A stretch of 64,000 nt of DNA from Escherichia coli (lineage in GTDB: Bacteria > Pseudomonadota > Gammaproteobacteria > Enterobacterales > Enterobacteriaceae). The notes beneath the pieces are model-generated. The model had not been told where the DNA came from, searched no databases, and worked only from the letters and a program-made list of their open reading frames with translations. This document shows positions 5,057 through 34,740 of this stretch, piece by piece. The stretch lies in assembly GCF_044324785.1 (NCBI RefSeq), contig NZ_CP172127.1. One strand, given 5' to 3'. A program made the translations under genes and the position numbers. Each line of letters opens with the position of its first letter. Position 1 is the first letter of the stretch.

Positions 5057-6352
<1,296 letters not shown>

Positions 6353-17051: not shown

Positions 17052-18953
17052 ATGTCAACCGGATTACGTTTCACACTGGAAGTGGACGGCCTGCCACCGG
17101 ACGCTTTTGCGGTGGTCTCCTTTCATCTCACCCAGTCACTCTCTTCACTTTTTTCCCTAGACCTTTCTCTGGTCAGTCAGCAGGTTCTCTCCCTTGAATT
17201 TGCGCAGGTGCTGGACAAAATGGCCTACCTGACGGTATGGCAGGGCGATGACGTACAGCGCCGGGTGAAAGGCGTGGTGACCTGGTTTGAACTCGGGGAG
17301 AACGACAAAAACCAGATGCTGTACAGCATGAAGGTGCGCCCGCCGCTGTGGCGGGCAGGACTGCGTCAGAACTTCCGTATCTTCCAGAACGAGGACATCA
17401 GAAGCATCCTCGGCACCATACTGCAGGAAAACGACGTCACGGAGTGGAGCCCGCTGTTCAGCGAGCCGCATCCTTCCCGTGAGTTTTGTGTCCAGTACGG
17501 TGAAACCGATTACGACTTTCTCTGCCGGATGGCAGCGGAGGAAGGCATCTTCTTCTATGAGGAGCACGCGCAGAAAAGTACCGACCAGAGTCTGGTGCTG
17601 TGCGACACGGTCCGCTATCTGCCGGAGTCCTTTGAAATCCCCTGGAACCCGAACACCCGTACCGAGGTGAGCACCCTCTGCATCAGCCAGTTCCGCTACA
17701 GCGCACAAATCCGTCCTTCCTCCGTGGTGACCAAAGACTACACCTTTAAACGCCCCGGCTGGGCCGGGCGTTTTGACCAGGAAGGCCAGCATCAGGATTA
17801 CCAGCGCACACAGTATGAAGTGTATGACTGGCCGGGGCGTTTCAAGAGCGCCCACGGGCAGAACTTTGCCCGCTGGCAGATGGACGGCTGGCGAAACAAC
17901 GCAGAAACCGCGCGGGGAATGAGCCGCTCGCCGGAGATATGGCCGGGACGGCGAATTGTGCTGACGGAGCATCCGCAGGCGAACCTGAACCGGGAATGGC
18001 AGGTGGTGGCGAGCGAACTGCACGGCGAACAGCCGCAGGCGGTGCCGGGACGGCGGGGCGCGGGGACGGCGCTGGAGAACCAGTTTGTGGTAATCCCGGC
18101 AGACCGGACGTGGCGGCCACAGCCGAAGCCAAAGCCGTCAGTGGACGGTCCACAGAGCGCCGTCGTGACGGGGCCTGCGGGAGAGGAAATCTTCTGCGAC
18201 GAGCATGGCCGGGTGCGGGTGAAATTCAACTGGGACCGCTATAACCCGGCCAACCAGGACAGCTCGTGCTGGATACGGGTGGCGCAGGCGTGGGCGGGGC
18301 CGGGATTTGGCAACCTGGCGATACCGCGCGTGGGTCAGGAGGTCATTGTGGACTTCCTCAACGGCGACCCAGACCAGCCCATCATCATGGGCCGCACCTA
18401 TCACCAGGAAAACCGCACCCCCGGCAGCCTGCCGGGAACGAAGACGCAGATGACCATCCGCTCCAAAACATATATGGGCAGCGGGTTTAACGAGCTGAAG
18501 TTTGACGATGCAACAGGGAAAGAACAGGTCTACATCCACGCGCAGAAGAACATGGATACCGAGGTGCTCAACGACCGTACCACCACCGTAAAACACGATC
18601 ACCGCGAAACCGTAAAAAATGACCAGACGGTCACGATCCAGGAAGGTAACCGCCTTCTTACGGTGGCAAAAGGCCACAAAATCACAGGCGTACTAAAAGG
18701 GTCCTTATCTGAGGATGTCTTTCAGGACAGAGGCACGATTGCCGGTTCAGTGCATGTTGACGCTGTAAACAATGGTGGCGAAGGCGACGGTATACAGGCT
18801 TATACGGCGATTAAGCAAATTATGCTGGCCGTGGAGGAAAGCAAAATTGCGCTGACGCCGGATGGCATTCAGCTACAGGTCGGGGAATCGACGGTAATCA
18901 GGCTGTCGAAGGATGGCATCACCATCGTGGGCAGTTCTGTTTTCATCAACTGA
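17052..18953 (+). CDS. vgrG: T6SS spike protein VgrG
   Basis: ATG at 17052, preceded by GGAGG at 17043. 633 aa with the classic VgrG gp27/gp5 core (...SCWIRVAQAWAGPGFGNLAIPRVGQEVIVDFLNGDPDQPIIMGRTYH...). Confidence 0.93.
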   Translation: MSTGLRFTLEVDGLPPDAFAVVSFHLTQSLSSLFSLDLSLVSQQVLSLEFAQVLDKMAYLTVWQGDDVQRRVKGVVTWFELGENDKNQMLYSMKVRPPLWRAGLRQNFRIFQNEDIRSILGTILQENDVTEWSPLFSEPHPSREFCVQYGETDYDFLCRMAAEEGIFFYEEHAQKSTDQSLVLCDTVRYLPESFEIPWNPNTRTEVSTLCISQFRYSAQIRPSSVVTKDYTFKRPGWAGRFDQEGQHQDYQRTQYEVYDWPGRFKSAHGQNFARWQMDGWRNNAETARGMSRSPEIWPGRRIVLTEHPQANLNREWQVVASELHGEQPQAVPGRRGAGTALENQFVVIPADRTWRPQPKPKPSVDGPQSAVVTGPAGEEIFCDEHGRVRVKFNWDRYNPANQDSSCWIRVAQAWAGPGFGNLAIPRVGQEVIVDFLNGDPDQPIIMGRTYHQENRTPGSLPGTKTQMTIRSKTYMGSGFNELKFDDATGKEQVYIHAQKNMDTEVLNDRTTTVKHDHRETVKNDQTVTIQEGNRLLTVAKGHKITGVLKGSLSEDVFQDRGTIAGSVHVDAVNNGGEGDGIQAYTAIKQIMLAVEESKIALTPDGIQLQVGESTVIRLSKDGITIVGSSVFIN

Positions 18954-18980
18954 TTCACTCAGATTAACAGGGAGTATTTT

Positions 18981-19442
18981 ATGCAGTTCACTTTTAATGA
19001 AGGTCATATTCAGCTGCCATCGCAATGGCAGGATCAGTCGATGCAGGTCCTGGTGTCCACAGATAACAGTGGCATCAACCTGGTCATTACCCGCGAACCC
19101 GTTCCACAGGGAACCCTGACACCAGAACTGTACCAGGAAACGCTGGCGCTGTACCAGGGCAAACTTGATGGGTACACCGAACATGCCTGCCGGGAAATCA
19201 CTCTGGCAGAGGCCCCGGCCTGGCTGCTGGATTATTCCTGGAACGGTCCGGAAGATGAAGGGAATCAGGGGCGGATTAGCCAGATAGCCGTATTCCAGCG
19301 GCGTGGAGATACGCTGCTGACCTTCACTTTCAGCACCTCCTTATCCCTGAAGAACAGTCAAAAGACGATGCTGCTGGAGGTGATAAAGAGCTTCACCCCG
19401 TTGCCACCGGAGAATGACATCCAAAAGGACCAGCCGCGCTGA
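18981..19442 (+). CDS. DUF1795/DcrB-fold Eag-type effector chaperone
   Basis: 153 aa. The N-terminus MQFTFNEGHIQLPSQWQDQSMQV is typical of Eag/DUF1795 proteins, and the gene sits between vgrG and a prePAAR effector. Confidence 0.8.
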   Translation: MQFTFNEGHIQLPSQWQDQSMQVLVSTDNSGINLVITREPVPQGTLTPELYQETLALYQGKLDGYTEHACREITLAEAPAWLLDYSWNGPEDEGNQGRISQIAVFQRRGDTLLTFTFSTSLSLKNSQKTMLLEVIKSFTPLPPENDIQKDQPR

Positions 19443-19461
19443 CATAAACGAGGGATAACAC

Positions 19462-22400
19462 ATGAGTGAAGGACCAGGCGGGCCACAGGGAGCGACCGCA
19501 GGCGGTACGCTGGCAATGCGAATGCTGTCACAGCAGGCGATGGTCGCCAGCCAGATGAAACGGGCAGCCAACGACAAAGCCATTGCACAGATGTTGGCAT
19601 CAAAAAAGTCTGGCCCCCCCGCCGCCAGGCTGGGCGATGAAATTCAGCACAAGAGTTTTTTGGGGGCGCTGGCAGGGGCCGTGCTGGGGGCGATAGTGAC
19701 CATCGCAGAAGGTTGCCTGATTATCGCCGCCTGTGCCACCGGCCCTTATGCGCTGGTTCTGGTGCCTGCGCTGATGTATGCCAGCTATAAGGCGAGTGAT
19801 TATGTGGAGGAGAAACAGAACCAGCTTGAATCCTGGATAAACAGCTTTTGTGACAAGGACGGGGCCATCAATACTGGTTCTAAAAATGTAAACATTAACG
19901 GAAAGCCCGCTGCCAGGGCCGCCGTCACACTTCCCCCTCCTCCCCTGACTGAAGCAATACCCTCTCCACCACAGGGGGAACCTTCATGGGGGGATATTGC
20001 CACTGACCTGCTTGAATCGGCAGCGGAAAAAGCAGTGCCACTGGCGAAGGCCTGGGGGAACGCTGTTATCACCCTGACGGACAGCAATGCCAGTTTTATG
20101 GATCGCTTATGTGCAGGCACATCGCTTCTGTTTCCCTACGGCCCGGTATTAATGGAGTTTGCCACCATGGTGGGCGGGCGTGGCGAAATCAAAAAAGACG
20201 TGGATTTCCCGGAAGCCGGTGAAGACACGGCGCTCTGCGACAAGGAGACTAAACCGCCGAGGATAGCCCAGGGCAGCAGCAACGTCTTCATCAACAATCA
20301 GCCTGCCGCGCGCAAGGGCGACAAACTGGAGTGCAGCGCGGCAATCGTGGAAGGTTCGCCGGACGTCTTTATTGGGGGTGAGCAGGTCACCTATCTGGAT
20401 ATCCAGCCGGAGTTCCCGCCGTGGCAGAGAATGATCCTGGGGGGAATAACGATAGCCAGCTATCTTCTGCCGCCAGCGGGACTGCTGGGAAAAATGAAGA
20501 ATCTGGCGAGACTCGGCAAACTGGGAAACCTGCTGGGGAAAAGCGGGAAGCTGCTGGGCGCAAAACTCGGCGCATTGCTGAGCAGAACAAAAAATGCCCT
20601 GAAAAATACGTATAACGTCCTGAAAAAGTTTATCAAAGATCCGGTTGACCCGGTAACCGGCGCGTACTGCGACGAACGTACCGACTTCACCCTGGGCCAG
20701 ACCCTCCCCCTCTCCTTCACCCGTTTCCACAGTTCTGTACTGCCACTGCATGGCCTGACGGGCGTGGGCTGGAGCGACTCCTGGAGCGAATACGCCTGGG
20801 TGCGTGAACAGGGAAACCGGGTGGATATCATCAGCCAGGGAGCCACGCTGTACTTTGCCTTCGACGGAGACAGTGATACGGCGGTTAACCCGTATCACGC
20901 CCAGTATATCCTGCGCCGCCGCGACGATTACCTGGAGCTGTTCGACCGTGATGCCCTGAGCAGCCGCTTCTTTTATGACGCCTTTCCGGGAATGCGCCTG
21001 CGCCACCAGGTGACCGGCGATACCAATGATGACCGCCTGGCACACAGCCCCGGTGACCGGATGTACATGCTGGGCGGAATGAGTGACACCGCCAGCAACC
21101 GCATCACGTTTGAGCGCGACAGTCAGTACCGGATCACGGGTGTCAGTCACACCGACGGGATCCGGCTTAAACTGACGTACCACGCCAGCGGCTACCTGAA
21201 AGCCATTCACCGCACGGATAACGGCATACAGACGCTGGCGACCTACGAACAGGACGAACGGGGACGGCTGACAGAAGCGGATGCGCGGCTGGACTACCAC
21301 CTGTTTTATGAGTACGACGATGCGGACCGGATCATCCGCTGGTCCGATAACGACCAGACGTGGAGCCGTTTCACCTACGATGCACAGGGCCGGTGCGTGA
21401 CCGTCACCGGGGCGGAAGGCTATTACAACGCCACGCTGGACTATGGTGACGGCTGCACTTCCGTGACGGACGGCAAGGGCATTCACCGTTATTACTATGA
21501 TCCTGACGGCAATATCCTGCGGGAAGACGCGCCGGACGGCAGTACCACCACGTATGAATGGGATGAATTCCATCACCTGCTGGCCCGCCACTCCCCTGCC
21601 GGACGGGTGGAGAAATTTGAATACAACGCCGTACACGGTCAGTTAAGCCGTTACACGGCGGCAGACGGCGCGGTGTGGCAGTACCGCTATGATGAGCGCG
21701 GCCTGCTCAGCAACATCACCGACCCTGCCGGGCAGACGTGGACACAGCAGTGTGATGAACGCGGCCTGCCGGTAAGTCTGGTGTCGCCACAGGGCGAAGA
21801 GACCCGGCTGGCGTACACGCCACAGGGGCTGCTGTCGGGGATATTCCGCCAGGATGAACGGCGTCTGGGCATAGAGTACGACCACCACAACCGGCCGGAA
21901 ACACTCACCGACGTGATGGGCCGTGAACACCACACCGAATACAGCGGTCACGACCTGCCGGTGAAGATGCGCGGCCCCGGCGGTCAGTCAGTGCGGTTAC
22001 AGTGGCAGCAGCACCATAAACTGAGTGGCCTTGAGCGGGCAGGAACCGGCGCGGAAGGATTCCGCTACGACCGCCACGGCAACCTGCTGGCGTACACGGA
22101 CGGTAACGGCGTTGTCTGGACAATGGAATACGGCCCGTTCGATTTGCCGGTGGCGCGAACGGACGGTGAAGGCCACCGCTGGCAGTACCGCTACGATAAA
22201 GACACGCTGCAACTGACAGAAGTCATCAATCCGCAGGGTGAGTCATACCGTTATATTCTCGACAACTGTGGCCGGGTGACGGAAGAGCGTGACTGGGGCG
22301 GCGTGGTCTGGCGTTACCGCTATGACGCCGATGGCCTGTGTACCGCCAGGGTTAACGGCCTGGAGGAAACTATCCTCTACAGCCGGGACGCCGCAGGCCG

Positions 22401-24324
22401 CCTGGCAGAAGTCATCACCCCGGAAGGCAAAACGCAGTATGCGTATGACAAATCCGGCAGGCTGACGGGTATCTTCAGCCCGGACGGCACATCACAGCGC
22501 ACCGGCTACGACGAACGCGGGCGGGTGAATGTCACCACTCAGGGCAGACGGGCCATTGAGTACCACCACCCCGATGAACACACCGTTATCCGCTGTATCC
22601 TGCCACCGGAAGATGAACGCGACAGACACCCCGGTGAATCCCTGCTGAAAACCACCTACCGCTACAACGCCGCCGGAGAACTGACGGAGGTTATCCTGCC
22701 GGGGGATGAGACGCTGACGTTCAGCCGTGATGAGGCAGGACGTGAAGTGCTCCGGCACAGTAACCGGGGTTTTGCCTGTGAACAGGGCTGGAATGCAGCC
22801 GGTCAGCTTACCAGCCAGCGCGCCGGATTTTTCCCGGCGGAAGCCACATGGGGCGGACTGCTCCCCTCACTGGTGCGGGAGTACCGTTACGACAGCGCGG
22901 GCAATGTGTCGGCTGTCACCAGCCGGGAAGACTACGGACGGGAAACACGGCGGGAGTACCGGCTGGACCGGAACGGCCAGGTCACAACGGTGACAGCCTC
23001 AGGCACCGGGCTGGGCTATGGCGAAGGCGACGAGACTTATGGCTATGACAGCTGCGGCTACCTGAAGGCGCAGTCTGCGGGCAGGCACCGGATAAGTGAA
23101 GAGACTGACCAGTATGCCGGAGGCCACCGGCTGAAACAGGCCGGAAACACGCAGTATGACTATGACGCCGCAGGCCGGATGGTCAGCCGCACCAGACACC
23201 GTGACGGCTACCGCCCGGAAACAGAGCGGTTCCGGTGGGACAGCCGGGACCAGCTGACCGGGTATTGCAGCGCACAGGGGGAGCAGTGGGAATACCGCCA
23301 CGACGCCAGCGGCAGGCGGACGGAAAAACGCTGCGACCGGAAGAAAATCCGTTTTACGTACCTGTGGGACGGCGACAATATTGCGGAAATCCGGGAATAC
23401 CGCGATGATAAACTGTACAGCGTACGGCACCTGGTGTTTAACGGCTTTGAGCTGGTAAGCCAGCAGTGCAGCCGGGTACGGCAGGCGCATCCGTCCGTGG
23501 CCCCGCAGTGGGTGACGCGAACGAATTATGCGGTGAGCGACCTGACAGGCCGCCCGCTGATGCTCTTTAACAGTGAAGGTAAAACCGTCTGGCGGCCGGG
23601 ACAGACCAGCCTGTGGGGGCTGGCACTCAGCCTGCCCGCAGACACCGGCTACCCGGACCCGCGCGGGGAACTGGACCCGGAAGCCCCCCCCGGCCTGCTG
23701 TATGCGGGACAGTGGCAGGATACGGAATCGGGGCTGTGCTATAACCGGTTCCGGTATTACGAGCCGGAAACCGGAATGTACCTGGTGAGTGATCCGCTGG
23801 GGTTGCAGGGAGGTGAGCAGACTTACCGGTATGTGCCTAATCCTTGTGGGTATGTTGATCCGCTGGGGCTGGCAAAAACCAGTATTATAAAATCTTCTAC
23901 AGGCAAAATCCCACAAGGGTTAACAAAAAGCGAATTTGAGATTTTTTCAAAAAAATTAAAGGATGTATTAGCCCGAGAGGGAATCTCGACAGAGAATGTG
24001 TTTGTACATGGCAGTAGAGCCAGAGGAGATGCTGTATCAGGTGTTTCAGATATTGATATAAAAGTGATCCTTAGTGATAAAGATTTTGGTGCCTTTGCAG
24101 CAAGACGTATTGCTGAGTCCTCAGGAAGGACTCGAAATTTAATCAGGAAGGCCGTTGCTAAAAATCAAAAAATAAATTCAAGAGGAATTTCTAAAACTTT
24201 TGAATCTACTGTATGGGATGAGGTTTTCACTACCTTACCAAAAGGTGAGTTTTCAAGCATTCAAGTTTCTGTTATGACCAAAACTTCACCATTCAACACT
24301 AATCCGAGTATTATATTACCATGA
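19462..24324 (+). CDS. prePAAR/PAAR-Rhs T6SS effector with C-terminal nucleotidyltransferase-like toxin domain
   Basis: 1620 codons. Features in order: prePAAR-like AARLGDEIQH (19621-19650), hydrophobic helices, PAAR motifs (GKPAARA; NQPAARKGD), numerous YD repeats, and the core end DPLGLQGGEQTYRYVPNPCGYVDPLGL (ends 23871). An AT-rich 150-codon CT follows, containing HGSRARGDAVSGVSDIDIKV. Confidence 0.93.
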   Translation: MSEGPGGPQGATAGGTLAMRMLSQQAMVASQMKRAANDKAIAQMLASKKSGPPAARLGDEIQHKSFLGALAGAVLGAIVTIAEGCLIIAACATGPYALVLVPALMYASYKASDYVEEKQNQLESWINSFCDKDGAINTGSKNVNINGKPAARAAVTLPPPPLTEAIPSPPQGEPSWGDIATDLLESAAEKAVPLAKAWGNAVITLTDSNASFMDRLCAGTSLLFPYGPVLMEFATMVGGRGEIKKDVDFPEAGEDTALCDKETKPPRIAQGSSNVFINNQPAARKGDKLECSAAIVEGSPDVFIGGEQVTYLDIQPEFPPWQRMILGGITIASYLLPPAGLLGKMKNLARLGKLGNLLGKSGKLLGAKLGALLSRTKNALKNTYNVLKKFIKDPVDPVTGAYCDERTDFTLGQTLPLSFTRFHSSVLPLHGLTGVGWSDSWSEYAWVREQGNRVDIISQGATLYFAFDGDSDTAVNPYHAQYILRRRDDYLELFDRDALSSRFFYDAFPGMRLRHQVTGDTNDDRLAHSPGDRMYMLGGMSDTASNRITFERDSQYRITGVSHTDGIRLKLTYHASGYLKAIHRTDNGIQTLATYEQDERGRLTEADARLDYHLFYEYDDADRIIRWSDNDQTWSRFTYDAQGRCVTVTGAEGYYNATLDYGDGCTSVTDGKGIHRYYYDPDGNILREDAPDGSTTTYEWDEFHHLLARHSPAGRVEKFEYNAVHGQLSRYTAADGAVWQYRYDERGLLSNITDPAGQTWTQQCDERGLPVSLVSPQGEETRLAYTPQGLLSGIFRQDERRLGIEYDHHNRPETLTDVMGREHHTEYSGHDLPVKMRGPGGQSVRLQWQQHHKLSGLERAGTGAEGFRYDRHGNLLAYTDGNGVVWTMEYGPFDLPVARTDGEGHRWQYRYDKDTLQLTEVINPQGESYRYILDNCGRVTEERDWGGVVWRYRYDADGLCTARVNGLEETILYSRDAAGRLAEVITPEGKTQYAYDKSGRLTGIFSPDGTSQRTGYDERGRVNVTTQGRRAIEYHHPDEHTVIRCILPPEDERDRHPGESLLKTTYRYNAAGELTEVILPGDETLTFSRDEAGREVLRHSNRGFACEQGWNAAGQLTSQRAGFFPAEATWGGLLPSLVREYRYDSAGNVSAVTSREDYGRETRREYRLDRNGQVTTVTASGTGLGYGEGDETYGYDSCGYLKAQSAGRHRISEETDQYAGGHRLKQAGNTQYDYDAAGRMVSRTRHRDGYRPETERFRWDSRDQLTGYCSAQGEQWEYRHDASGRRTEKRCDRKKIRFTYLWDGDNIAEIREYRDDKLYSVRHLVFNGFELVSQQCSRVRQAHPSVAPQWVTRTNYAVSDLTGRPLMLFNSEGKTVWRPGQTSLWGLALSLPADTGYPDPRGELDPEAPPGLLYAGQWQDTESGLCYNRFRYYEPETGMYLVSDPLGLQGGEQTYRYVPNPCGYVDPLGLAKTSIIKSSTGKIPQGLTKSEFEIFSKKLKDVLAREGISTENVFVHGSRARGDAVSGVSDIDIKVILSDKDFGAFAARRIAESSGRTRNLIRKAVAKNQKINSRGISKTFESTVWDEVFTTLPKGEFSSIQVSVMTKTSPFNTNPSIILP
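21559..23844 (+). repeat. rhs core direct repeat, copy A (within the full-length rhs)
   Basis: Aligns with 27298-29583 at a constant offset of 5739 nt. The first ~80 nt are diverged and the rest is near-identical by eye. Confidence 0.9.
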
Positions 24325-24671
24325 AGAAAAAAGATATTAGATTTGCAATATCCATTAACTCCAACTTAAGTAAGATAGAATTAATGGAAAAAATTAAAAA
24401 TATAATCCCAGGGCTTATTGAAATAACTTCCAGTGCATTAAGAGAAGAAAAAAACATGGTAGTTATTGAAGAAAATGATCTTTATGACCCTATAAAAGCA
24501 GAGGGAGCTGATGGATGGATGTATTATAAATTCATATTATCCATATTCCCATTAAAGGGAGTGGAAACAACATTAGAATATCAACGGGAATTATCTTTTC
24601 TTTTCTTAAAGAAAATAAAAGATGCGGGCCTGTTGGGTGAACTTATATGCGAGGATGATTTTCATGACTGA
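24321..24671 (+). CDS. Presumptive cognate immunity protein of the Rhs NTase-like CT
   Basis: 116-codon AT-rich ORF whose ATG overlaps the rhs stop (ATGA), the usual Rhs CT/immunity arrangement. I recognise no motif in it. Confidence 0.7.
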   Translation: MKKKDIRFAISINSNLSKIELMEKIKNIIPGLIEITSSALREEKNMVVIEENDLYDPIKAEGADGWMYYKFILSIFPLKGVETTLEYQRELSFLFLKKIKDAGLLGELICEDDFHD

Positions 24672-24730
24672 TGACCTCTACATATATCCTCAGTTCGTGG
24701 CTGGTATTACATGATCTGACAGGGAAAGAT

Positions 24731-24880
24731 CGTGGCGAAATCAAAAAAGACGTGGATTTCCCGGAAGCCGGTGAGGACACGGCGCTCTGCGACAAGGAGA
24801 ACAAACCACCGAGGATAGCCCAGGGCAGCAGCAACGTCTTCATCAACAATCAGCCTGCCGCACGCAAAGGGGACAAACTG
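24731..24880 (+). pseudogene. 150-bp fragment of an rhs PAAR region
   Basis: Matches 20179-20328 of the main rhs (RGEIKKDVDFPEAGEDTALCDKE[N/T]KPPRIAQGSSNVFINNQPAARKGDKL). It is truncated on both sides and abuts the ISEc1 left end. Confidence 0.85.
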
Positions 24881-26171
24881 CAGGGAAAGATCACGTAACG
24901 CTGCTTTTTTGTACTAAATAATTCGCATTTTATGTTTAAAAATTGAGATATTCCTCATTACCTAAAGCTGTTTTTTATTGCTTATACATGATCAAATACT
25001 CCTTACATAATTAAGGAGAACAAAATGGAACTTAAAAAATTGATGGAACATATTTCTGTTATCCCCGATTACAGACAAGCATGGAAAGTAGAACATAAAT
25101 TGTCAGATATTCTACTGTTGACTATTTGCGCCGTCATTTGTGGTGCAGAAGGCTGGGAAGATATAGAGGATTTTGGTGAAACACATCTCGATTTTTTGAA
25201 GCAATATGGTGATTTTGAAAATGGTATTCCTGTCCACGATACCATTGCCAGAGTTGTATCCTGTATCAGTCCTGCAAAATTTCACGAGTGCTTTATTAAC
25301 TGGATGCGAGATTGCCATACTTCAGATGATAAAGACGTTATTGCAATCGATGGAAAAACACTCCGGCATTCTTATGACAAGAGTCGCCGCAGGGGAGCGA
25401 TTCATGTCATTAGTGCGTTCTCAACAATGCACAGTCTGGTCATCGGACAGATCAGGACGGATGAGAAATCTAATGAGATTACAGCTATCCCAGAACTTCT
25501 TAACATGCTGGATATTAAAGGAAAAATCATCACAACTGATGCGATGGGTTGCCAGAAAGATATTGCAGAGAAGATACAAAAACAGGGCGGTGATTATTTA
25601 TTCGCTGTAAAAGGAAATCAGGGGCGGCTTAATAAAGCCTTTGAGGAAAAATTCCCACTGAAAGAATTAAATAATCCAGAGCATGATAGTTACGCAATTA
25701 GTGAAAAGAGTCACGGCAGAGAAGAAATCCGACTTCATATTGTTTGCGATGTCCCTGATGAACTTATTGATTTCACGTTTGAATGGAAAGGGCTGAAGAA
25801 ATTATGCATAGCAGTCTCCTTTCGCTCAATAATAGCAGAGCAAAAGAAAGAGCCAGAAATGACGGTCAGATATTATATCAGTTCTGCTGATTTAAACACA
25901 GAAAAGTTCGCCACAGCAATCCGAAACCACTGGCACGTGGAGAATAAGCTGCACTGGCGTCTGGATGTGGTAATGAATGAAGACGACTGCAAAATAAGAA
26001 GAGGAAATGCAGCAGAATTATTTTCAGGGATACGGCACATCGCTATTAATATTTTGACGAATGATAAGGTATTCAAGGCAGGGTTAAGACGTAAGATACG
26101 AAAAGCAGCTATGGACAGAAACTACATGGCGTCAGTCCTTGCGGGGAGCGGGCTTTCGTAATCTTTCCCTG
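24881..26171 (+). mobile_element. ISEc1 (H-repeat, ISAs1 family), copy 1
   Basis: Imperfect terminal inverted repeats: cagggaaagatcacgtaacg on the left, and ...cgtaatctttccctg on the right. The element encloses the H-repeat-associated transposase ORF. Confidence 0.88.
25025..26161 (+). CDS. ISAs1-family (H-repeat-associated, YhhI-like) transposase
   Basis: 378 aa, [37 protein letters not shown]..., recognisable as the E. coli Rhs-associated H-rpt protein. AAGGAG SD upstream. Confidence 0.9.
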
Positions 26172-26396
26172 GACATGACGATTATTGTTCGTTCAAATCC
26201 GAGTAAAGCCGCTATTCTTGAAGAATTTTTACATGGTACACAAGAGAAACTAGGAATAGCTGAAAAATTAGGACGTTATGGACTAGGGAGTGCAGAAACG
26301 CACGTTAAGGATTTCATGATAAGACACAAAAAAATGCTTGGGTTATCTGATGAGGATGTAGCAATACTCAAAATATTGAAAGACAAGGGGTTGTGA
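26172..26396 (+). pseudogene. C-terminal stub of an orphan polymorphic-toxin CT, truncated by ISEc1
   Basis: The open frame starts exactly at the IS right end (…DMTIIVRSNPSKAAILEEFLHGTQEKLG…KDKGL). Its stop overlaps the next ATG (TGATG), as in toxin/immunity pairs. Confidence 0.55.
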
Positions 26397-26683
26397 TGAA
26401 TATAATTCTGCCGATAAAAGATATATTTATTATTGCGGGAAACATAGTTTTTAGCGTTTTATACAATGAACATATTGAGTTCCCATGCCGCTGCCAATTA
26501 CTATCTTCAAATTCTGAAGTTATGCAAGAGTTATATATTGAAAAAGAGTTATTTATTAAACGCACTACAGAAAATGATTGTCGTGCTTTAGTGTTAAGAG
26601 GAACATTGGAATACTTATTTGATGAAATTATTGCTGGCGATTGTGCATTGGCCTTATTACAAAAAGAAATAAAAAAAGATTAA
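26396..26683 (+). CDS. Presumptive orphan immunity protein 2
   Basis: 95-codon AT-rich ORF overlapping the upstream stub's stop by 1 nt. No recognisable motif. Confidence 0.55.
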   Translation: MNIILPIKDIFIIAGNIVFSVLYNEHIEFPCRCQLLSSNSEVMQELYIEKELFIKRTTENDCRALVLRGTLEYLFDEIIAGDCALALLQKEIKKD

Positions 26684-26699
26684 TCCAATATGTAGAACT

Positions 26700-26905
26700 G
26701 GACAATACCCATCTTTTAACAATGAACTTCGTAATTTTTATCTTAGAAATAATGCTACATTATATGAGGTATATCATGAAGTAATTCATGCCAAGCAATT
26801 TGCGAAAATATTTCTATCGGAGGTGCTGATGCACCATCTAATATGAGACTTATGGATATAATGACACATACAACTCATCATAAATATTACAGGCCTTGGG
26901 AATGA
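26700..26905 (+). pseudogene. Decayed orphan toxin CT with HExxH (zinc-metallopeptidase-like) motif
   Basis: One frame reads ...NELRNFYLRNNATLYEVYHEVIHAKQFAKI... and stops at 26844. Another frame, open from 26780, continues ...GGADAPSNMRLMDIMTHTTHHKYYRPWE* to 26905. This is consistent with a 1-nt frameshift near the A-run at ~26804. There is no rhs core upstream. Confidence 0.6.
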
Positions 26906-27264
26906 TAAATAAAATAGTGAAAAAAATGTTGGTTTCATATAGCCCTAAGAAACCGGAGTCTAGGGGCGGGGATTTTGTTATTCCGTTGTTTTTTAATGAG
27001 AAAGTTTCTTTTTTTAGCATAAAAAGTGGCAAGCCAGTGCGATATGGTCTTATGGTATTTACAGGGAAAGTAATTACCATAGATGATATTCTTAGTAAAG
27101 TTCGTTTTCCTGATGTTATGAATGAGCAAAATATTCAACCGTTAATTGACTTTATTAATAACATTAGCGATTTTAAAATAGGGGATGTTATTGAAATTGA
27201 TGATAATGGTAAATTGAAAGTTGTGCCAAAATCAGCAGGACACCCTGTGAGTAAATTGCCATGA
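26902..27264 (+). CDS. Presumptive orphan immunity protein 3
   Basis: 120-codon ORF from the ATG at 26902, overlapping the stub stop as ATGA. AT-rich, with no recognisable motif. Confidence 0.55.
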   Translation: MINKIVKKMLVSYSPKKPESRGGDFVIPLFFNEKVSFFSIKSGKPVRYGLMVFTGKVITIDDILSKVRFPDVMNEQNIQPLIDFINNISDFKIGDVIEIDDNGKLKVVPKSAGHPVSKLP

Positions 27265-27297
27265 TACTTAAGGGGCCTGATTTTCTGTTTTTGCCAG

Positions 27298-29583
27298 TGG
27301 GACGAATACCATCACCTGCTGGCGAGGCTGTCTCCGGCAGGACGGCTGGAAAAGTTTGACTATCATCTGACACTCGGTCAGTTAAGCCGTTACACGGCGG
27401 CAGACGGCGCGGAGTGGCAGTACCGCTATGATGAGCGCGGCCTGCTCAGCAACATCACCGACCCTGCCGGGCAGACGTGGACACAGCAGTGCGATGAACG
27501 CGGCCTGCCGGTGAGTCTGGTGTCGCCACAGGGCGAAGAGACCCGGCTGGCGTACACCGCTCAGGGGCTGCTGTCGGGGATATTCCGCCAGGATGAACGG
27601 CGTCTGGGCATAGAGTACGACCACCACAACCGGCCGGAAACACTCACCGACGTGATGGGCCGTGAACACCACACCGAATACAGCGGTCACGACCTGCCGG
27701 TGAAGATGCGCGGCCCCGGCGGTCAGTCAGTGCGCTTACAGTGGCAGCAGCACCATAAACTGAGCGGCATTGAACGTGCTGGAACCGGCGCGGAAGGATT
27801 TCGCTATGACCGCCACGGCAACCTGCTGGCCTGGACGGACGGCAACGGTGTTGACTGGACAATGGAATACGGCCCGTTTGATTTGCCGGTGGCGCGAACG
27901 GACGGTGAAGGCCACCGCTGGCAGTACCGCTACGATAAAGACACGCTGCAACTGACAGAAGTCATCAATCCGCAGGGCGAGTCATACCGTTATATTCTCG
28001 ACAACTGTGGGCGGGTGACGGAAGAGCATGACTGGGGCGGCGTGGTCTGGCGTTACCGCTATGACGCCGATGGTCTGTGTACCGCCAGGGTTAACGGCCT
28101 GGAGGAAACCATCCTCTACAGCCGGGACGCCGCAGGCCGCCTGGCAGAAGTCATCACCCCGGAAGGGAAAACGCAGTATGCGTATGACAAATCCGGCAGG
28201 CTGACGGGTATCTTCAGCCCGGACGGCACATCACAGCGCACCGGCTACGACGAACGCGGGCGGGTGAATGTCACCACTCAGGGCCGACGGGCCATTGAAT
28301 ACCACCACCCCGATGAACACACCGTCATCCGCTGTATCCTGCCACCGGAAGATGAACGCGACAGACACCCCGGTGAATCCCTGCTGAAAACCACCTACCG
28401 CTACAACGCCGCCGGAGAACTGACGGAGGTTATCCTGCCGGGGGATGAGACGCTGACGTTCAGCCGTGATGAGGCAGGACGTGAAGTGCTCCGGCACAGT
28501 AACCGGGGTTTTGCCTGTGAACAGGGCTGGAATGCAGCCGGTCAGCTTACCAGCCAGCGCGCCGGATTTTTCCCGGCGGAAGCCACATGGGGCGGACTGC
28601 TCCCCTCACTGGTGCGGGAGTACCGTTACGACAGCGCGGGCAATGTGTCGGCTGTCACCAGCCGGGAAGACTACGGACGGGAAACACGGCGGGAGTACCG
28701 GCTGGACCGGAACGGCCAGGTCACAACGGTGACAGCCTCAGGCACCGGGCTGGGCTATGGCGAAGGCGACGAGACTTATGGCTATGACAGCTGCGGCTAC
28801 CTGAAGGCGCAGTCTGCGGGCAGGCACCGGATAAGTGAAGAGACTGACCAGTATGCCGGAGGCCACCGGCTGAAACAGGCCGGAAACACGCAGTATGACT
28901 ATGACGCCGCAGGCCGGATGGTCAGCCGCACCAGACACCGTGACGGCTACCGCCCGGAAACAGAGCGGTTCCGGTGGGACAGCCGGGACCAGCTGACCGG
29001 GTATTGCAGCGCACAGGGGGAGCAGTGGGAATACCGCCACGACGCCAGCGGCAGGCGGACGGAAAAACGCTGCGACCGGAAGAAAATCCGTTTTACGTAC
29101 CTGTGGGACGGCGACAATATTGCGGAAATCCGGGAATACCGCGATGATAAACTGTACAGCGTACGGCACCTGGTGTTTAACGGCTTTGAGCTGGTAAGCC
29201 AGCAGTGCAGCCGGGTACGGCAGGCGCATCCGTCCGTGGCCCCGCAGTGGGTGACGCGAACGAATTATGCGGTGAGCGACCTGACAGGCCGCCCGCTGAT
29301 GCTCTTTAACAGTGAAGGTAAAACCGTCTGGCGGCCGGGACAGACCAGCCTGTGGGGGCTGGCACTCAGCCTGCCCGCAGACACCGACTACCCGGACCCG
29401 CGCGGGGAGCTGGACCCGGAAGCCGACCCCGGCCTGCTGTATGCAGGACAGTGGCAGGATACGGAATCAGGGCTGTGCTATAACCGGTTCCGGTACTACG
29501 AGCCGGAAACCGGAATGTACCTGGTGAGTGATCCGCTGGGGTTGCAGGGGGGTGAGCAGACTTACCGGTATGTGCCGAATCCT
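27298..29583 (+). repeat. rhs core direct repeat, copy B (orphan)
   Basis: See copy A. The offset is 5739 nt, and homology ends at the codon after the shared ...VPNP. Confidence 0.9.
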
Positions 29584-30051
29584 TTAAGATATAAAGATTT
29601 CTATGGGCTTAGTAAGAGTTCAATAATAACGAGAGGAAAGAATGCTGGTCATGGCTATGCAGCCAGCGTTACACCTGGAGGCAAAGGTACGGTGTTGGCT
29701 GGTCACGGAGGATCAAAATTTGGCGATAAAATGATTATACCAGAAGGCGTATCGATAACGATGCCGAGAGATGGTATTAAAATATCAGATATGACTGGAA
29801 AATTACTGGAATCTGGTAATGTGGATGATATAATTAAAGCTGCAAGTAATAATCCTCGTGTAGCTAGCGATCTTGAAGGTTGGGTTACTTATTTGCCCGG
29901 CACTGAAATCCCTGATTATATTTTAAAACCACCCACCAATCTTAACATACTGGAAAATTCAGTAACGGTGAACACTTCAACTTATTTATCTCAAATGGTA
30001 AATGCTGGTCAAGGTAATGTAATCTGGGCTGCATGCACCGAATTTTTTTAA
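27298..30051 (+). pseudogene. Orphan 5'-truncated rhs core with an intact alternative CT toxin domain
   Basis: The frame is open stop-to-stop from 27265 with no plausible start or N-terminal PAAR region. 27298-29583 parallels the main rhs core. It diverges after ...YRYVPNP into a distinct AT-rich 155-codon CT (LRYKDFYGLSKSSIITRGKNAGHGY...VIWAACTEFF). Confidence 0.85.
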
Positions 30052-30065
30052 CGCGGGGTAATCGT

Positions 30066-30548
30066 ATGTATTTTAAAGATGATACTGACTATACATATTT
30101 CCTTCCTAATGAATATTTTTTACACGGGGTGAAAAATGTGGGCTGGATAGACAGAGAACACCCCTTCACAAAAGGGATTAGTGACGCTGAATTTATTGAA
30201 AAGTTAAAAGCAATAATTCTAACAGAGAATGAAGCAACTTGTTTTTCAGTTAATAAAATAAGAGGATTTCACAAATGTAATTTTTGCAATAGTGAAATGA
30301 TAACAATAACCGATGGAAGAAAAAAAGGATACCTTGGCATGAGTGAAATATGGATTCCATCCATCCACCATAATGAGTATTACGCGTTTCCTTCATTAAT
30401 TTTCCATTATATAACATCTCACATGTATAGACCACCAGAGGACTTTATTGTATCTGTTTTAAACTTGAATTTAAGCGAGAGTTTTTGCGCTCAAAACATA
30501 TATGACAATAAAATTAAGGAATTAAAAATAGACTTCTGGTTTCGTTAA
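30066..30548 (+). CDS. Presumptive immunity protein of the orphan Rhs CT
   Basis: 160-codon AT-rich ORF from the ATG at 30066, 15 nt after the orphan rhs stop. It contains HKCNFCNSE. The annotated start at 30033 would overlap the toxin end and was not used. Confidence 0.6.
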   Translation: MYFKDDTDYTYFLPNEYFLHGVKNVGWIDREHPFTKGISDAEFIEKLKAIILTENEATCFSVNKIRGFHKCNFCNSEMITITDGRKKGYLGMSEIWIPSIHHNEYYAFPSLIFHYITSHMYRPPEDFIVSVLNLNLSESFCAQNIYDNKIKELKIDFWFR

Positions 30549-30568
30549 AGCTGGTAATTTAACTTATC

Positions 30569-30665
30569 GGGAATACCGCTATGATGGCAGTTTCAGACGG
30601 ACGGAGAAATGCTGTCAGCAAAAAGACTTCCGCTTCGCGTATCTGTGGGGCATGGGGATAATTTA
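30569..30665 (+). pseudogene. Diverged rhs core scrap
   Basis: Reads (W)EYRYDGSFRRTEKCCQQKDFRFAYLWG, paralleling WEYRHDASGRRTEKRCDRKKIRFTYLWDG of the main rhs (around 23286-23385) but clearly more diverged. Confidence 0.6.
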
Positions 30666-30732
30666 TCTTCATCAATTGATATATTGATTAATGGCAAGGA
30701 GGCCATTGAAATTCCGTAAGGCCAACTTGATA

Positions 30733-30914
30733 TGACGCCTGGCACACAGCCCCGGTGACCGGATGTATATGCTGGGCGGGATGAGCGACACCGCCAGCAA
30801 CCGCATCACGTTTGAGCGCGACAGCCAGTACCGGATCACGGGTGTCAGTCACACCGACGGGATCCGGCTTAAACTGACGTACCACGCCAGCGGCTACCTG
30901 AAAGCCATTCACCG
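30733..30914 (+). pseudogene. rhs core fragment (N-proximal part of the core) truncated by an IS end
   Basis: Matches 21036-21217 of the main rhs (LAHSPGDRMYMLGGMSDTASNRITFERDSQYRITGVSHTDGIRLKLTYHASGYLKAIHR). It ends at an H-repeat left terminus. Confidence 0.8.
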
Positions 30915-31023
30915 CAGGGAAAGATCACGTAACGCTGCTTTTTTGTACTAAGCAATTCGCATTTTATGTTCAGTATTTGAGATACTCCTTATAACACAAA
31001 CCTGTTTTTCATAGCTTATATAT
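30915..31023 (+). mobile_element. Solo, diverged H-repeat/ISEc1 left-end fragment
   Basis: Starts with cagggaaagatcacgtaacgctgcttttttgtacta, like the IS left end, then diverges from the canonical copy. It is cut off by the next complete copy. Confidence 0.7.
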
Positions 31024-32315
31024 GTAGGAAAAGATCACGTAACGCTCCTTTTTTGTACTAAATAATTCGCATTTTATGTTTAAAAATTGAGATATTCCTC
31101 ATTACCTAAAGCTGTTTTTTATTGCTTACACATGATCAAATACTCCTTACATAATTAAGGATAACAAAATGTAACTTAAAAAATTGATGGAACATATTTC
31201 TATTATCCCCGATTACAGACAAGCCTGGAAAGTGGAACATAAATTATCGGATATTCTACTGTTGACTATTTGTGCCGTTATTTCGGGTGCAGAAGGTTGG
31301 GAAGATATAGAGGATTTTGGGGAAACACATCTCGATTTTTTAAAACAATATGGTGATTTTGAAAATGGTATTCCTGTTCACGATACCATTGCCAGAGTTG
31401 TATCCTGTATCAGCCCTGCAAAATTTCACGAGTGCTTTATTAACTGGATGCGAGATTGCCATACTTCAGATGATAAAGACGTCATCGCAATTGATGGAAA
31501 AACACTCCGGCATTCTTATGGCAAGAGTCGCCGCAGGGGAGCGATTCATGTCATTAGTGCGTTCTCAACAATGCACAGTCTGGTCATCGGACAGATCAGG
31601 ACGGATGAGAAATCCAATGAAATTACAGCTATCCCTGAACTTCTTAACATGCTGGATATTAAAGGAAAAATCATCACAACTGATGCAATGGGTTGCCAGA
31701 AAGATATTGCAGAGAAGATACAAAAACAGGGCGGTGATTATTTATTCGCTGTAAAAGGAAATCAGGGGCGGCTTAATAAAGCCTTTGAGGAAAAATTTCC
31801 ACTGAAAGAATTAAATAATCCAGAGCATGACAGTTACGCCATTAGTGAAAAGAGTCACGACAGAGAAGAAATCCGTCTTCATATTGTTTGCGATGTCCCT
31901 GATGAACTTATTGATTTCACGTTTGAATGGAAAGGACTGAAGAAATTATGCGTGGCAGTCTCCTTTCGGTCAATAATAGCAGAACAAAAGAAAGAGCCAG
32001 AAATGACGGTCAGATATTATATCAGTTCTGCTGATTTAACCGCAGAGAAGTTCGCCACAGCAATCCGAAACCACTGGCACGTGGAGAATAAGCTGCACTG
32101 GCGTCTGGACGTGGTAATGAATGAAGACGACTGCAAAATAAGAAGAGGAAATGCAGCAGAATTATTTTCAGGGATACGGCACATCGCTATTAATATTTTG
32201 ACGAATGATAAGGTATTCAAGGCAGGGTTAAGACGTAAGATGCGAAAAGCAGCCATGGACAGAAACTATCTCGCGTCAGTCCTTGCTGGGAGCGGGCTTT
32301 CGTAATCTTTCCCTG
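31024..32315 (+). mobile_element. ISEc1 (H-repeat, ISAs1 family), copy 2
   Basis: The left end taggaaaagatcacgtaacg has 2 mismatches to copy 1. The right end ...cgtaatctttccctg finishes at 32315. Same length class as copy 1. Confidence 0.85.
31187..32305 (+). CDS. ISAs1-family transposase, copy 2, N-terminally compromised
   Basis: The canonical start has ATG-TAA (31169-31174) where copy 1 has ATG-GAA, and the SD is AAGGAT rather than AAGGAG. The frame is otherwise intact from the internal ATG at 31187 ([15 protein letters not shown]...). Confidence 0.6.
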
Positions 32316-32502
32316 CGTTAACCGCCCCTCCTTGACACCACGCTTTTGTCTACATTCTACGCAAACGGCAACTTTTATAACCAGTGTAAAAATAACGTGC
32401 CGCAATAGTCATACCTATTAATGGTAAAAAGCTGTCACAATTCATAAAAAACCTTAATATACGCCACCCTAAACATAACCAGCGTTAATGTAAGGTTTTT
32501 GT

Positions 32503-34740
32503 GTGGACTGGCTTCTTGATGTTTTTGCTACCTGGCTCTACGGCTTAAAAGTAATCGCGATAACGTTAGCGGTCATCATGTTCATCAGCGGGCTGGACGA
32601 TTTTTTTATTGATGTCGTCTACTGGGTACGCCGCATTAAACGCAAGTTGAGTGTTTATCGCCGCTACCCGCGAATGAGTTACCGCGAACTGTATAAACCA
32701 GATGAAAAACCGTTAGCGATTATGGTTCCGGCGTGGAATGAAACGGGCGTCATCGGCAATATGGCCGAGCTGGCGGCGACCACGCTCGACTATGAAAACT
32801 ATCATATCTTTGTTGGCACCTACCCCAACGACCCCGATACTCAGCGTGATGTTGACGAAGTGTGCGCTCGCTTCCCAAACGTGCATAAGGTAGTCTGCGC
32901 GCGTCCTGGCCCCACCAGCAAAGCCGACTGCCTGAACAACGTGCTGGACGCCATCACCCAGTTTGAGCGTAGCGCCAATTTCGCTTTCGCTGGTTTTATT
33001 CTGCATGACGCCGAAGACGTAATTTCACCGATGGAATTGCGTTTGTTCAACTATCTGGTCGAGCGTAAAGATCTGATTCAGATCCCGGTATACCCATTCG
33101 AACGCGAATGGACGCACTTCACCAGCATGACTTACATTGATGAGTTTTCAGAACTGCATGGCAAAGATGTTCCGGTGCGTGAAGCCCTCGCCGGACAGGT
33201 GCCCAGCGCAGGCGTCGGCACCTGTTTCAGCCGCCGCGCCGTGACCGCACTGTTAGCTGACGGTGACGGTATTGCTTTCGACGTGCAGAGTCTTACTGAA
33301 GATTACGACATTGGTTTCCGCCTGAAAGAAAAAGGTATGACGGAAATTTTTGTCCGTTTTCCGGTGGTGGACGAAGCCAAAGAACGCGAGCAGCGTAAAT
33401 TTTTACAGCACGCGCGGACGTCAAACATGATCTGCGTGCGCGAATATTTCCCTGATACCTTTTCGACTGCGGTTCGACAAAAATCTCGCTGGATCATCGG
33501 CATTGTTTTCCAGGGCTTTAAAACCCATAAATGGACCTCCAGCCTGACGCTGAACTACTTTCTCTGGCGCGACCGCAAAGGGGCAATCAGTAACTTTGTC
33601 AGCTTCCTCGCGATGCTGGTGATGATCCAGCTTTTGCTGTTACTGGCGTATGAAAGTTTGTGGCCCGATGCCTGGCATTTCCTTTCTATTTTCAGCGGCA
33701 GCGCATGGTTAATGACCCTGCTGTGGCTAAACTTTGGTTTGATGGTTAACCGCATCGTGCAGCGGGTGATTTTTGTCACTGGCTACTACGGTCTGACGCA
33801 GGGGCTGCTATCTGTCCTGCGTCTTTTCTGGGGCAACCTGATTAACTTCATGGCCAACTGGCGCGCGTTAAAACAGGTACTTCAACACGGCGATCCACGT
33901 CGCGTCGCGTGGGATAAAACAACGCATGACTTCCCCAGCGTGACTGGCGATACCCGCTCGTTGCGCCCGTTAGGCCAAATTCTGCTGGAAAATCAGGTCA
34001 TCACTGAAGAACAACTCGATACAGCACTGCGTAATCGCGTCGAAGGTCTACGCCTGGGCGGTTCAATGCTGATGCAGGGGCTGATTAGCGCCGAACAGCT
34101 GGCACAGGCGCTGGCAGAGCAAAACGGCGTGGCGTGGGAGTCGATCGACGCCTGGCAGATCCCTTCATCACTGATTGCCGAAATGCCGGCCTCCGTGGCG
34201 CTGCATTATGCAGTGCTGCCGCTGCGTCTGGAAAATGATGAGTTAATTGTCGGCAGTGAAGATGGTATTGACCCGGTTTCGCTGGCGGCCCTGACGCGTA
34301 AAGTCGGACGCAAAGTGCGTTACGTCATTGTTCTGCGCGGACAAATTGTCACGGGGTTACGTCACTGGTATGCACGCCGACGCGGTCACGATCCGCGGGC
34401 AATGTTGTACAATGCGGTTCAGCATCAGTGGCTCACGGAACAGCAGGCCGGTGAAATCTGGCGGCAATATGTGCCGCATCAGTTCCTGTTCGCCGAAATA
34501 CTGACCACGCTCGGTCATATTAATCGTTCAGCAATTAACGTGTTGTTATTGCGCCATGAACGCAGTTCTCTGCCGCTCGGCAAGTTTTTGGTCACCGAAG
34601 GCGTTATCAGCCAGGAAACGTTGGATCGCGTCCTGACAATTCAACGCGAATTACAAGTTTCGATGCAATCACTATTACTCAAAGCAGGTTTAAACACAGA
34701 ACAGGTTGCGCAACTGGAGTCCGAAAATGAAGGAGAATAA
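32503..34740 (+). CDS. nfrB: NfrB, inner-membrane family-2 glycosyltransferase (phage N4 adsorption; c-di-GMP-controlled exopolysaccharide synthase)
   Basis: 745 codons from a GTG, MDWLLDVFATWLYGLKVIAITLAV.... GT2 motifs are present (HDAED, RQKSRW), with a long C-terminal cytoplasmic region. Recognisable as K-12 NfrB. Confidence 0.94.
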   Translation: MDWLLDVFATWLYGLKVIAITLAVIMFISGLDDFFIDVVYWVRRIKRKLSVYRRYPRMSYRELYKPDEKPLAIMVPAWNETGVIGNMAELAATTLDYENYHIFVGTYPNDPDTQRDVDEVCARFPNVHKVVCARPGPTSKADCLNNVLDAITQFERSANFAFAGFILHDAEDVISPMELRLFNYLVERKDLIQIPVYPFEREWTHFTSMTYIDEFSELHGKDVPVREALAGQVPSAGVGTCFSRRAVTALLADGDGIAFDVQSLTEDYDIGFRLKEKGMTEIFVRFPVVDEAKEREQRKFLQHARTSNMICVREYFPDTFSTAVRQKSRWIIGIVFQGFKTHKWTSSLTLNYFLWRDRKGAISNFVSFLAMLVMIQLLLLLAYESLWPDAWHFLSIFSGSAWLMTLLWLNFGLMVNRIVQRVIFVTGYYGLTQGLLSVLRLFWGNLINFMANWRALKQVLQHGDPRRVAWDKTTHDFPSVTGDTRSLRPLGQILLENQVITEEQLDTALRNRVEGLRLGGSMLMQGLISAEQLAQALAEQNGVAWESIDAWQIPSSLIAEMPASVALHYAVLPLRLENDELIVGSEDGIDPVSLAALTRKVGRKVRYVIVLRGQIVTGLRHWYARRRGHDPRAMLYNAVQHQWLTEQQAGEIWRQYVPHQFLFAEILTTLGHINRSAINVLLLRHERSSLPLGKFLVTEGVISQETLDRVLTIQRELQVSMQSLLLKAGLNTEQVAQLESENEGE

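Follow-up and report, generated by a model that had tools for sequence, protein, structure and literature searches.

The DNA between positions 26172 and 27264 of the analysed window, a stretch of 64,000 nucleotides that is 100% identical to the chromosome of Escherichia coli N3 (NZ_CP031609.1), is best read as debris left by recombination in the variable 3' portion of a T6SS vgrG-dcrB-PAAR-rhs locus, in which three toxin remnants and two complete immunity genes lie between an ISAs1-family IS and an orphan rhs core, and we give this reading a probability of about 0.88. The first-pass annotation of the region had described two toxin stubs. That these are dead CT remnants is borne out by the full-length relatives found for each of them, whereas their number has to be raised to three, since what had appeared as the third toxin/immunity module consists of an MPTase4 scrap and an HNH tail. 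The coordinates, reading frames, TGATG and ATGA overlaps and IS end at 26171 given in that annotation all hold.

The effector locus and its left flank

The T6SS effector locus adjoins nrfB/nfrA and comprises, from 5' to 3', vgrG, a DcrB-like gene, the main PAAR-rhs ORF (19462-24324, 1620 aa, with a nucleotidyltransferase-type CT), imm1, a PAAR fragment, the ISAs1-family IS and the studied region, followed by an orphan rhs core with its own CT/immunity gene, a short rhs fragment, a second ISEc1 copy and finally nrfB/nfrA. The GC content of the cassettes is 29-33% versus 60-65% in the rhs core, which is typical of CT/immunity cassettes. An Rfam search of positions 18000-34000 gave no match, and the promoter/terminator scan remained at background, with 10 promoter sites found versus 9.1 expected.

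On its left, the studied region is bounded by the ISAs1-family IS (ISEc1-like, "H-repeat"; 24881..26171, plus strand, 1291 bp), whose transposase occupies 25025-26161 and is named "ISAs1 family transposase" by PGAP. The terminal 11-mer of the element occurs at 24881 on the plus strand and at 26161 on the minus strand, and the terminal inverted repeat, CAGGGAAAGAT / ATCTTTCCCTG, places the right end at 26171. No target-site duplication was found at the IS flanks, which read GGACAAACTG on one side and GACATGACGA on the other. The left end of the IS abuts a fragment derived from the PAAR region of a displaced rhs (24731..24880, plus strand), which lies between the imm1 module and the IS, was identified by comparing its translation with the main Rhs and is annotated by PGAP as a partial "PAAR domain-containing protein". 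The right end cuts CT2, and homology to other E. coli genomes begins at 26172, directly after the IS, a boundary that is specific to N3. The absence of a target duplication, together with the PAAR fragment on the opposite flank, fits an IS-associated deletion that would have eliminated approximately 3.9 kb from an older rhs.

The history of this left-hand side is more complex than one deletion, as a solo 11-nt IS end is present at 24720-24730, directly 5' of the PAAR fragment, and the scar formed by the PAAR fragment is also present in O121 strains.

The CT2 stub and imm2

The first remnant downstream of the IS is the CT2 stub (26172..26396, plus strand), which represents the 3' end of an Rhs toxin domain without a Pfam model; its frame covers 74 codons (26172-26393) and ends with the TGA at 26394-26396. 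An intact CT2 is found in IGC_RcoliRes_1.1 (L005), where a PAAR-Rhs of 1603 aa carries, after DPLGL, a CT of 133 aa ending in ...KILKDKGL. It follows from this parent that N3 retains 74 of the 133 CT residues (the C-terminal 56%), and the stub is thus without the N-terminal 59 residues of the CT and without the whole Rhs carrier. The block that contains it (module 2, 26172-26784) is present at an identity of at least 95% in 565 of the 5426 complete E. coli genomes. In the N3 genome module 2 occupies a single place, and the search, which covered the 3' end, detected no second CT2 3' end.

Homologues of CT2 occur in diverse bacteria, with 93-99% of the 133-aa CT covered and an identity of 66-71% among the best matches. 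The family features an invariant EEFLHGTQ and a conserved E..HVKDFMIRH. In particular, EEFLH is invariant in the 65 aligned homologues, with a Glu replacing the first zinc-binding His, so that the motif is EExxH and not HExxH. Neither Pfam nor NCBIfam provided a model matching CT2, and a Pfam search with 18 CT2 homologues revealed no toxin family, the sole significant match being Pretoxin-HINT in the N-terminal part of one homologue. An AlphaFold model of one homologue (P0004) reached a pLDDT of 87.8. Furthermore, hhalign placed the EEFLHGTQ of CT2 on the HEVIHAKQ of MPTase4 in a colinear alignment of 53 columns, with weak statistics. We infer, with moderate confidence, that CT2 is probably a toxin of the zincin-like type that carries EExxH as a variant motif and differs from minimal zincins of the Wss1/SprT/ArdC type both in the invariant replacement of the first zinc-binding His and in its lack of a Pfam match.

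The stop codon of the CT2 stub is overlapped (TGATG) by the ATG, at 26396, of an intact ORF of 95 aa (26396..26683, plus strand), presumed to be the cognate immunity gene and hereafter called imm2. In L005, imm2 lies directly behind the intact Rhs-CT2 with the identical TGATG overlap. In two unrelated metagenome loci (L007 and L008), CT2 homologues are followed at a distance of 1-5 nt by ORFs of 93-96 aa, which align end to end with imm2 at an identity of 24-25% (hhalign P=4.5e-4). The 3' side of imm2 is occupied by a spacer (26684..26709) common to the approximately 565 E. coli genomes with module 2.

In the region of a G-run within CT2, 538 of the 559 matching genomes carry a G5-to-G4 frameshift, and the in-frame allele is restricted to about 15-21 of the 5426 genomes. 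In the 538 genomes the G4 allele forms one haplotype, linked to a SNP in its vicinity, which points to a single old event; for the same reason phase variation at the G-run was rejected. Given the scarcity of in-frame CT2, the threat that the putative immunity genes would have to counter looks rare.

The junction at 26809, the HNH tail and imm3

Downstream of the spacer, an internal fragment of a Tox-MPTase4 CT (26710..26809, plus strand; 33 codons, in frame from 26712) carries the HExxH motif. The frame reads ...PSFNNELRNFYLRNNATLYEVYHEVIHAKQFAKI... and reaches a stop at the TGA of 26844-26846. The fragment matches PF15640 with E=4.5e-6 and 27.0 bits (gathering cut-off 25) at model positions 53-86 of 132, and its sequence, PSFNNELRNFYLRNNATLYEVYHEVIH, contains FN, R and HEVIH, in correspondence to the F[DN], [RK] and HExxH motifs reported for Tox-MPTase4, a family described in E. 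coli as linked to Rhs and delivered by the T6SS (Zhang et al. 2012, PMC3482391). At the nucleotide level, it shares 86% identity with positions 745-844 of L006, where a full Rhs-linked MPTase4 CT covers positions 1-132 of PF15640 (E=8e-34) and continues, beyond the fragment, with ...FAKIGREAYEALGRL.... Thus, the assignment of the HExxH stretch to a polymorphic-toxin domain, as proposed in the first-pass annotation, is confirmed. Different from complete members of the family, only the portion mentioned above is left: PGAP annotates a pseudo "zincin-like metallopeptidase toxin domain" with both ends missing at 26712-26810, and the fragment, with the imm2 spacer on its 5' side and the HNH tail on its 3' side, has neither end of the domain, no immunity gene and no Rhs delivery module. 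The scar joining imm2 to MPTase4 is present also in genomes of the E. coli C type, where the sequence diverges at about 26784 into another tail; since the junction of N3 lies at 26809, the MPTase4 scrap must have been truncated independently at least twice.

A second frame, open from 26780, reads ...ISIGGADAPSNMRLMDIMTHTTHHKYYRPWE* and terminates at the TGA of 26903-26905. Its downstream part is the tail of an HNH-nuclease Rhs CT (26810..26905, plus strand), corresponding to the last 31 codons plus the stop, with a nucleotide identity of 99.3-99.6% to L003 and L004. The complete HNH CT is available in L010 and in L003 (ORF 6534-7097); it reads ...GYHVDHIVPISIGGADAPSN... and includes a DH...N...H motif (...GYHVDHIVPISIGGADAPSNMRLMDIMTHTTHH...), and in both L003 and L004 its 3' end reads ...PPGYHVDHIVPISIGGADAPSNMRLMDIMTHTTHHKYYRPWE*, followed by an ORF of 120 aa with an ATGA overlap. 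The tail in the window starts at ISIGG, after the DH motif, and the first catalytic His is therefore absent. The full-length HNH CT scores 20.4 bits on PF01844 versus a cut-off of 21.4 (E=5.6e-4), and PGAP names it "HNH endonuclease signature motif containing protein". A BLAST search with 26780-27290 retrieved two other E. coli genomes, in which the match begins only at 26809. The block formed by the HNH tail and the following ORF occurs at a single place in N3, with no second HNH 3' end in the search, which covered the 3' end. A deliverable HNH toxin was not found among the loci compared: in L003 and L010 the ORF of the rhs core stops about 140 nt before the CT ORF, and in L004 an IS1 interrupts the rhs-HNH gene.

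The two frames had been interpreted in the first-pass annotation as one metallopeptidase toxin gene whose frame was lost when the A-run near 26804 acquired a 1-nt indel, with the 120-aa ORF as its immunity gene, and indeed they overlap and meet near GCGAAAAT, and their repair in silico yields one open frame. The repaired protein, however, scores 24.5 bits on Tox-MPTase4 versus 27 for the fragment alone, and the two matches have a common end, so that the repair brings no gain. Moreover, genuine MPTase4 runs on for 46 further model positions with a sequence unrelated to the second frame, which is nearly identical to the HNH CT 3' end, as reported above, and the sequence upstream of that end in the HNH gene is unrelated to MPTase4. 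A three-way DNA alignment of the window, L006 and L003 decides the matter, showing identity to MPTase4 through GCGAAAAT and to HNH from TATTTCTATCGG, with an abrupt switch of homology at 26809, where a T is the sole shared nucleotide. Two unrelated genes therefore abut at this position, which explains the different reading frames, no indel is present in the A-run, and we regard a single frameshifted metallopeptidase gene as practically excluded. The boundaries obtained by BLAST and the three-way alignment identify 26809 as an illegitimate recombination junction with a microhomology of 1 nt. This junction was observed only in N3 among the 5426 complete E. coli genomes, and a scan of metagenome contigs for the exact junction returned no match; such rarity, in a class of loci that is rich in repeats, could suggest an artefact in the assembly of the N3 genome. 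This is very improbable, as the sequence around the junction is unique and AT-rich, with a single shared nucleotide, and assemblers produce collapsed repeats and not joins of this type. Moreover, each flank is otherwise colinear with a real locus, and bona fide scars in the vicinity are common to hundreds of genomes. The apparent frameshift is hence the fusion of two unrelated toxin scraps, of which the second owns the immunity gene, and it suggests that, in the variable regions of Rhs/CDI loci, overlapping frames should be interpreted as a frameshift only after comparison with full-length relatives.

The intact 120-aa ORF (26902..27264, plus strand), presumed to be the cognate immunity gene of the HNH CT and called imm3 here, overlaps with its ATG, at 26902, the stop of the HNH toxin (ATGA), and it belongs to this toxin and not to the metallopeptidase. 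The same ATGA overlap links imm3 to a complete HNH CT in L003, L010 and L011, while in L012 and L013 an imm3 homologue of 49% identity overlaps the stop of an HNH CT of 75% identity. imm3 is rare, with a single cluster at 90% identity in a set of 5.8 billion proteins, and its remote relatives amount to approximately 120 representative clusters of similar size. A search of the genome-contig collection returned no relatives, and Pfam assigned none of 37 imm3 homologues to an immunity family.

Origin of the debris and persistence of the immunity genes

The arrangement of the region may be accounted for by the following order of events, which we reconstructed from the few genomes compared. An older resident rhs would have extended from the PAAR region as far as CT2, an organisation found in E. 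coli C and IGC_RcoliRes_1.1, until an incoming rhs-CT1/imm1 displaced it; an IS-associated deletion would then have gutted it from the PAAR region (24880) to the middle of CT2 (26172). The imm2/MPTase4 junction at 26710 would represent an older scar, common to about 10% of E. coli, and the MPTase4/HNH junction at 26809 a later non-homologous joining, present only in N3. The three toxin scraps would be unable to fold or to be delivered, since the Rhs shell and the PxxxxDPxGL cleavage motif are absent and the catalytic domains are incomplete. Neither a core nor a DPxGL motif lies upstream of any of them, and the PxxxxDPxGL motif is present in L003, L005 and L006. The putative imm2 and imm3 proteins may still work and could protect N3 from kin delivering Rhs-CT2 or Rhs-HNH.

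Debris of this kind is the ordinary product of C-terminal displacement, a known phenomenon described together with orphan modules in Rhs/CDI loci (Poole 2011, PMC3150448), and the region represents one more documented case in which the toxin was lost and the immunity gene retained, leaving the current understanding of Rhs evolution unchanged. As in the orphan rhs-CT/immunity modules, AT-rich cassettes are stacked 3' of a full-length GC-rich rhs (PMC3150448; Jackson 2009 BMC Genomics 10:584, as cited by Kirchberger 2017), the immunity ORF directly follows or overlaps the CT stop, strains share cassettes in differing order, and some fragments are interrupted by IS elements (PMC3150448). Different from the scraps of N3, classical orphans retain a piece of the rhs core and the PxxxxDPxGL motif, so that homologous recombination can load them again onto the main gene; the three scraps, without core, motif and part of the toxin domain, are beyond reloading, and the MPTase4 scrap additionally lacks an immunity gene. 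Orphan immunity arrays have also been reported in T6SS clusters of V. cholerae, for which homology-facilitated illegitimate recombination was proposed (Kirchberger 2017, PMC5361080). The region resembles these arrays in that an incoming pair replaces the old effector and leaves the old immunity gene behind, and its junction with a 1-nt microhomology is consistent with the illegitimate end. It differs from the V. cholerae auxiliary clusters in that the effector is an E. coli Rhs, an IS-associated deletion contributes and protection is putative.

The two small ORFs are not chance features. At a GC content of 29-33% about 8% of random codons are stops, and the probability of an open run is approximately 5e-4 for 95 codons and 6e-5 for 120 codons. 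Pfam and NCBIfam searches with the stubs and the small ORFs revealed nothing except MPTase4, so that neither imm2 nor imm3 falls into a named immunity family. Both ORFs are uninterrupted, as was originally noted, and their conserved relatives lie directly 3' of complete cognate CTs elsewhere, diverged pairs included, which makes imm2 and imm3 credible putative immunity genes on the basis of position and co-variation. As the searches with the 3' ends of CT2 and HNH detected no further copy in N3, both are regarded as true orphans.

That their intactness reflects selection, as suggested in the first-pass annotation, is unproven, with weak outside support and counter-evidence both at hand. The copies in N3 are at most 1% (0.4-1%) diverged from the toxin-linked copies, which makes their intactness uninformative on selection and explicable by the youth of the rearrangements that we propose, and in N3 the toxin stubs, each read in its own frame, have no internal stops either. 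The ORFs could therefore be neutral relics, intact through recency, without selective maintenance and maybe unexpressed, a reading to which we give somewhat less than even odds. In its favor, imm2 differs from the toxin-linked copies by only 3-4 nt, 2 of which are non-synonymous, and imm3 differs from that of L003 by 2 nt, both non-synonymous; imm3 is frameshifted in PS2Canimalfeces12 (L004), and shortened imm2 variants exist (P0129, of 81 aa and with 63 members, P0135 and P0137-P0139); the cognate toxins are rare or undeliverable, and the promoter scan did not rise above background. On the other hand, most of the matches at the CT2 G-run are frameshifted, yet imm2 is annotated as an intact CDS in nearly all of the 30 carrier genomes of module 2 that were sampled. 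Furthermore, an orphan imm2 copy of 74% identity in L016 displays a dN/dS of 0.23 and no indel in 285 nt, and the neighboring 77-nt CT2 stub has accumulated two indels and lost family-invariant residues.

Module 2 is present in about 10% of E. coli, and in about 96% of its carriers the toxin is killed by the G5-to-G4 frameshift while the 95-aa imm2 would remain open. It is tempting, but doubtful, to take CT2/imm2 as an undescribed Rhs toxin-immunity family whose toxin is a minimal zincin with an invariant EExxH and whose carriers, including N3 with its IS-truncated stub, would for the most part be "defence-only", with imm2 selected against a rare minority of toxin producers amounting to about 0.4% of genomes. 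As an uncharacterised, probably zincin-like EExxH pair that is common in E. coli and usually toxin-dead, CT2/imm2 may offer a natural test of selection on orphan immunity. The minus-strand ORFs at 26368-26565, 26850-27080 and 26935-27138, which carry no PGAP annotation, are regarded as chance ORFs antisense to imm2 and imm3.

Frameshift in CT2 and the fate of imm2

The window retains only the 3' remainder (26172 to 26396) of CT2, an Rhs C-terminal toxin domain. Among the 559 E. coli genomes that match the region of a G-run upstream of this part, 538 have lost one nucleotide of the run (ATGGGGGTT to ATGGGGTT), and this 1-nt deletion splits the toxin. The run maps to positions 5870 to 5880 both in the locus of E. 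coli C and in that of IGC_RcoliRes_1.1, the latter with an intact Rhs-CT2. The in-frame allele occurs in only about 15 to 21 genomes, and a nearby A/C SNP is linked to the deletion. The deletion looks like a single old pseudogenizing event rather than phase variation at the G-run. In a sample of 30 genomes, imm2, the presumed immunity gene of CT2, still has an intact CDS annotation in almost every case.

Another orphan imm2 associated with an IS is found in other genomic surroundings. In a Logan contig (L016, positions 1 to 1090), the right end of an ISAs1 element, an SMI1-like ORF, a decayed CT2 tail of 25 codons, and an intact imm2 homologue (74% identical) adjoin fliJ.

Chimeric junctions on the MPTase4 scrap

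In E. coli C-type genomes, the internal piece of the Tox-MPTase4 domain is joined at ...YHEV to a different C-terminal tail (KNVNKGVGLVGDNG...EPFWRF*), with no match in Pfam, so that two chimeric junctions have formed independently on this scrap. The tail is followed by a 65-aa ORF, which looks like a truncated immunity gene (E. coli C locus, 6613 to 6800 and 6803 to 7000).

IS remnants and the main PAAR-rhs gene

The terminal repeat of the IS also occurs on its own, as an 11-nt copy (CAGGGAAAGAT) at window 24720 to 24730, directly 5' of a PAAR fragment (24731 to 24880) and 150 bp upstream of the start of the complete IS. Since the same scar, formed by imm1 (the immunity gene behind the main PAAR-rhs), the IS end, and PAAR, is shared by O121 strains and others, in which it runs on into rhs sequence, it predates the IS-CT2 junction.

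The main PAAR-rhs gene (window 19462 to 24324) is an uninterrupted 1,620-aa ORF with a nucleotidyltransferase-type C-terminal domain. PGAP instead calls two features here, an incomplete pseudogene with a frameshift and, separately, a "nucleotidyltransferase domain-containing protein."

In the second ISEc1 copy, ATG TAA (window 31168 to 31190) occupies the position of the transposase start of the first copy, and PGAP places the start at an ATG further downstream. An IS left-end segment of about 110 bp is present twice (30915 to 31030 and 31028 to 31140).
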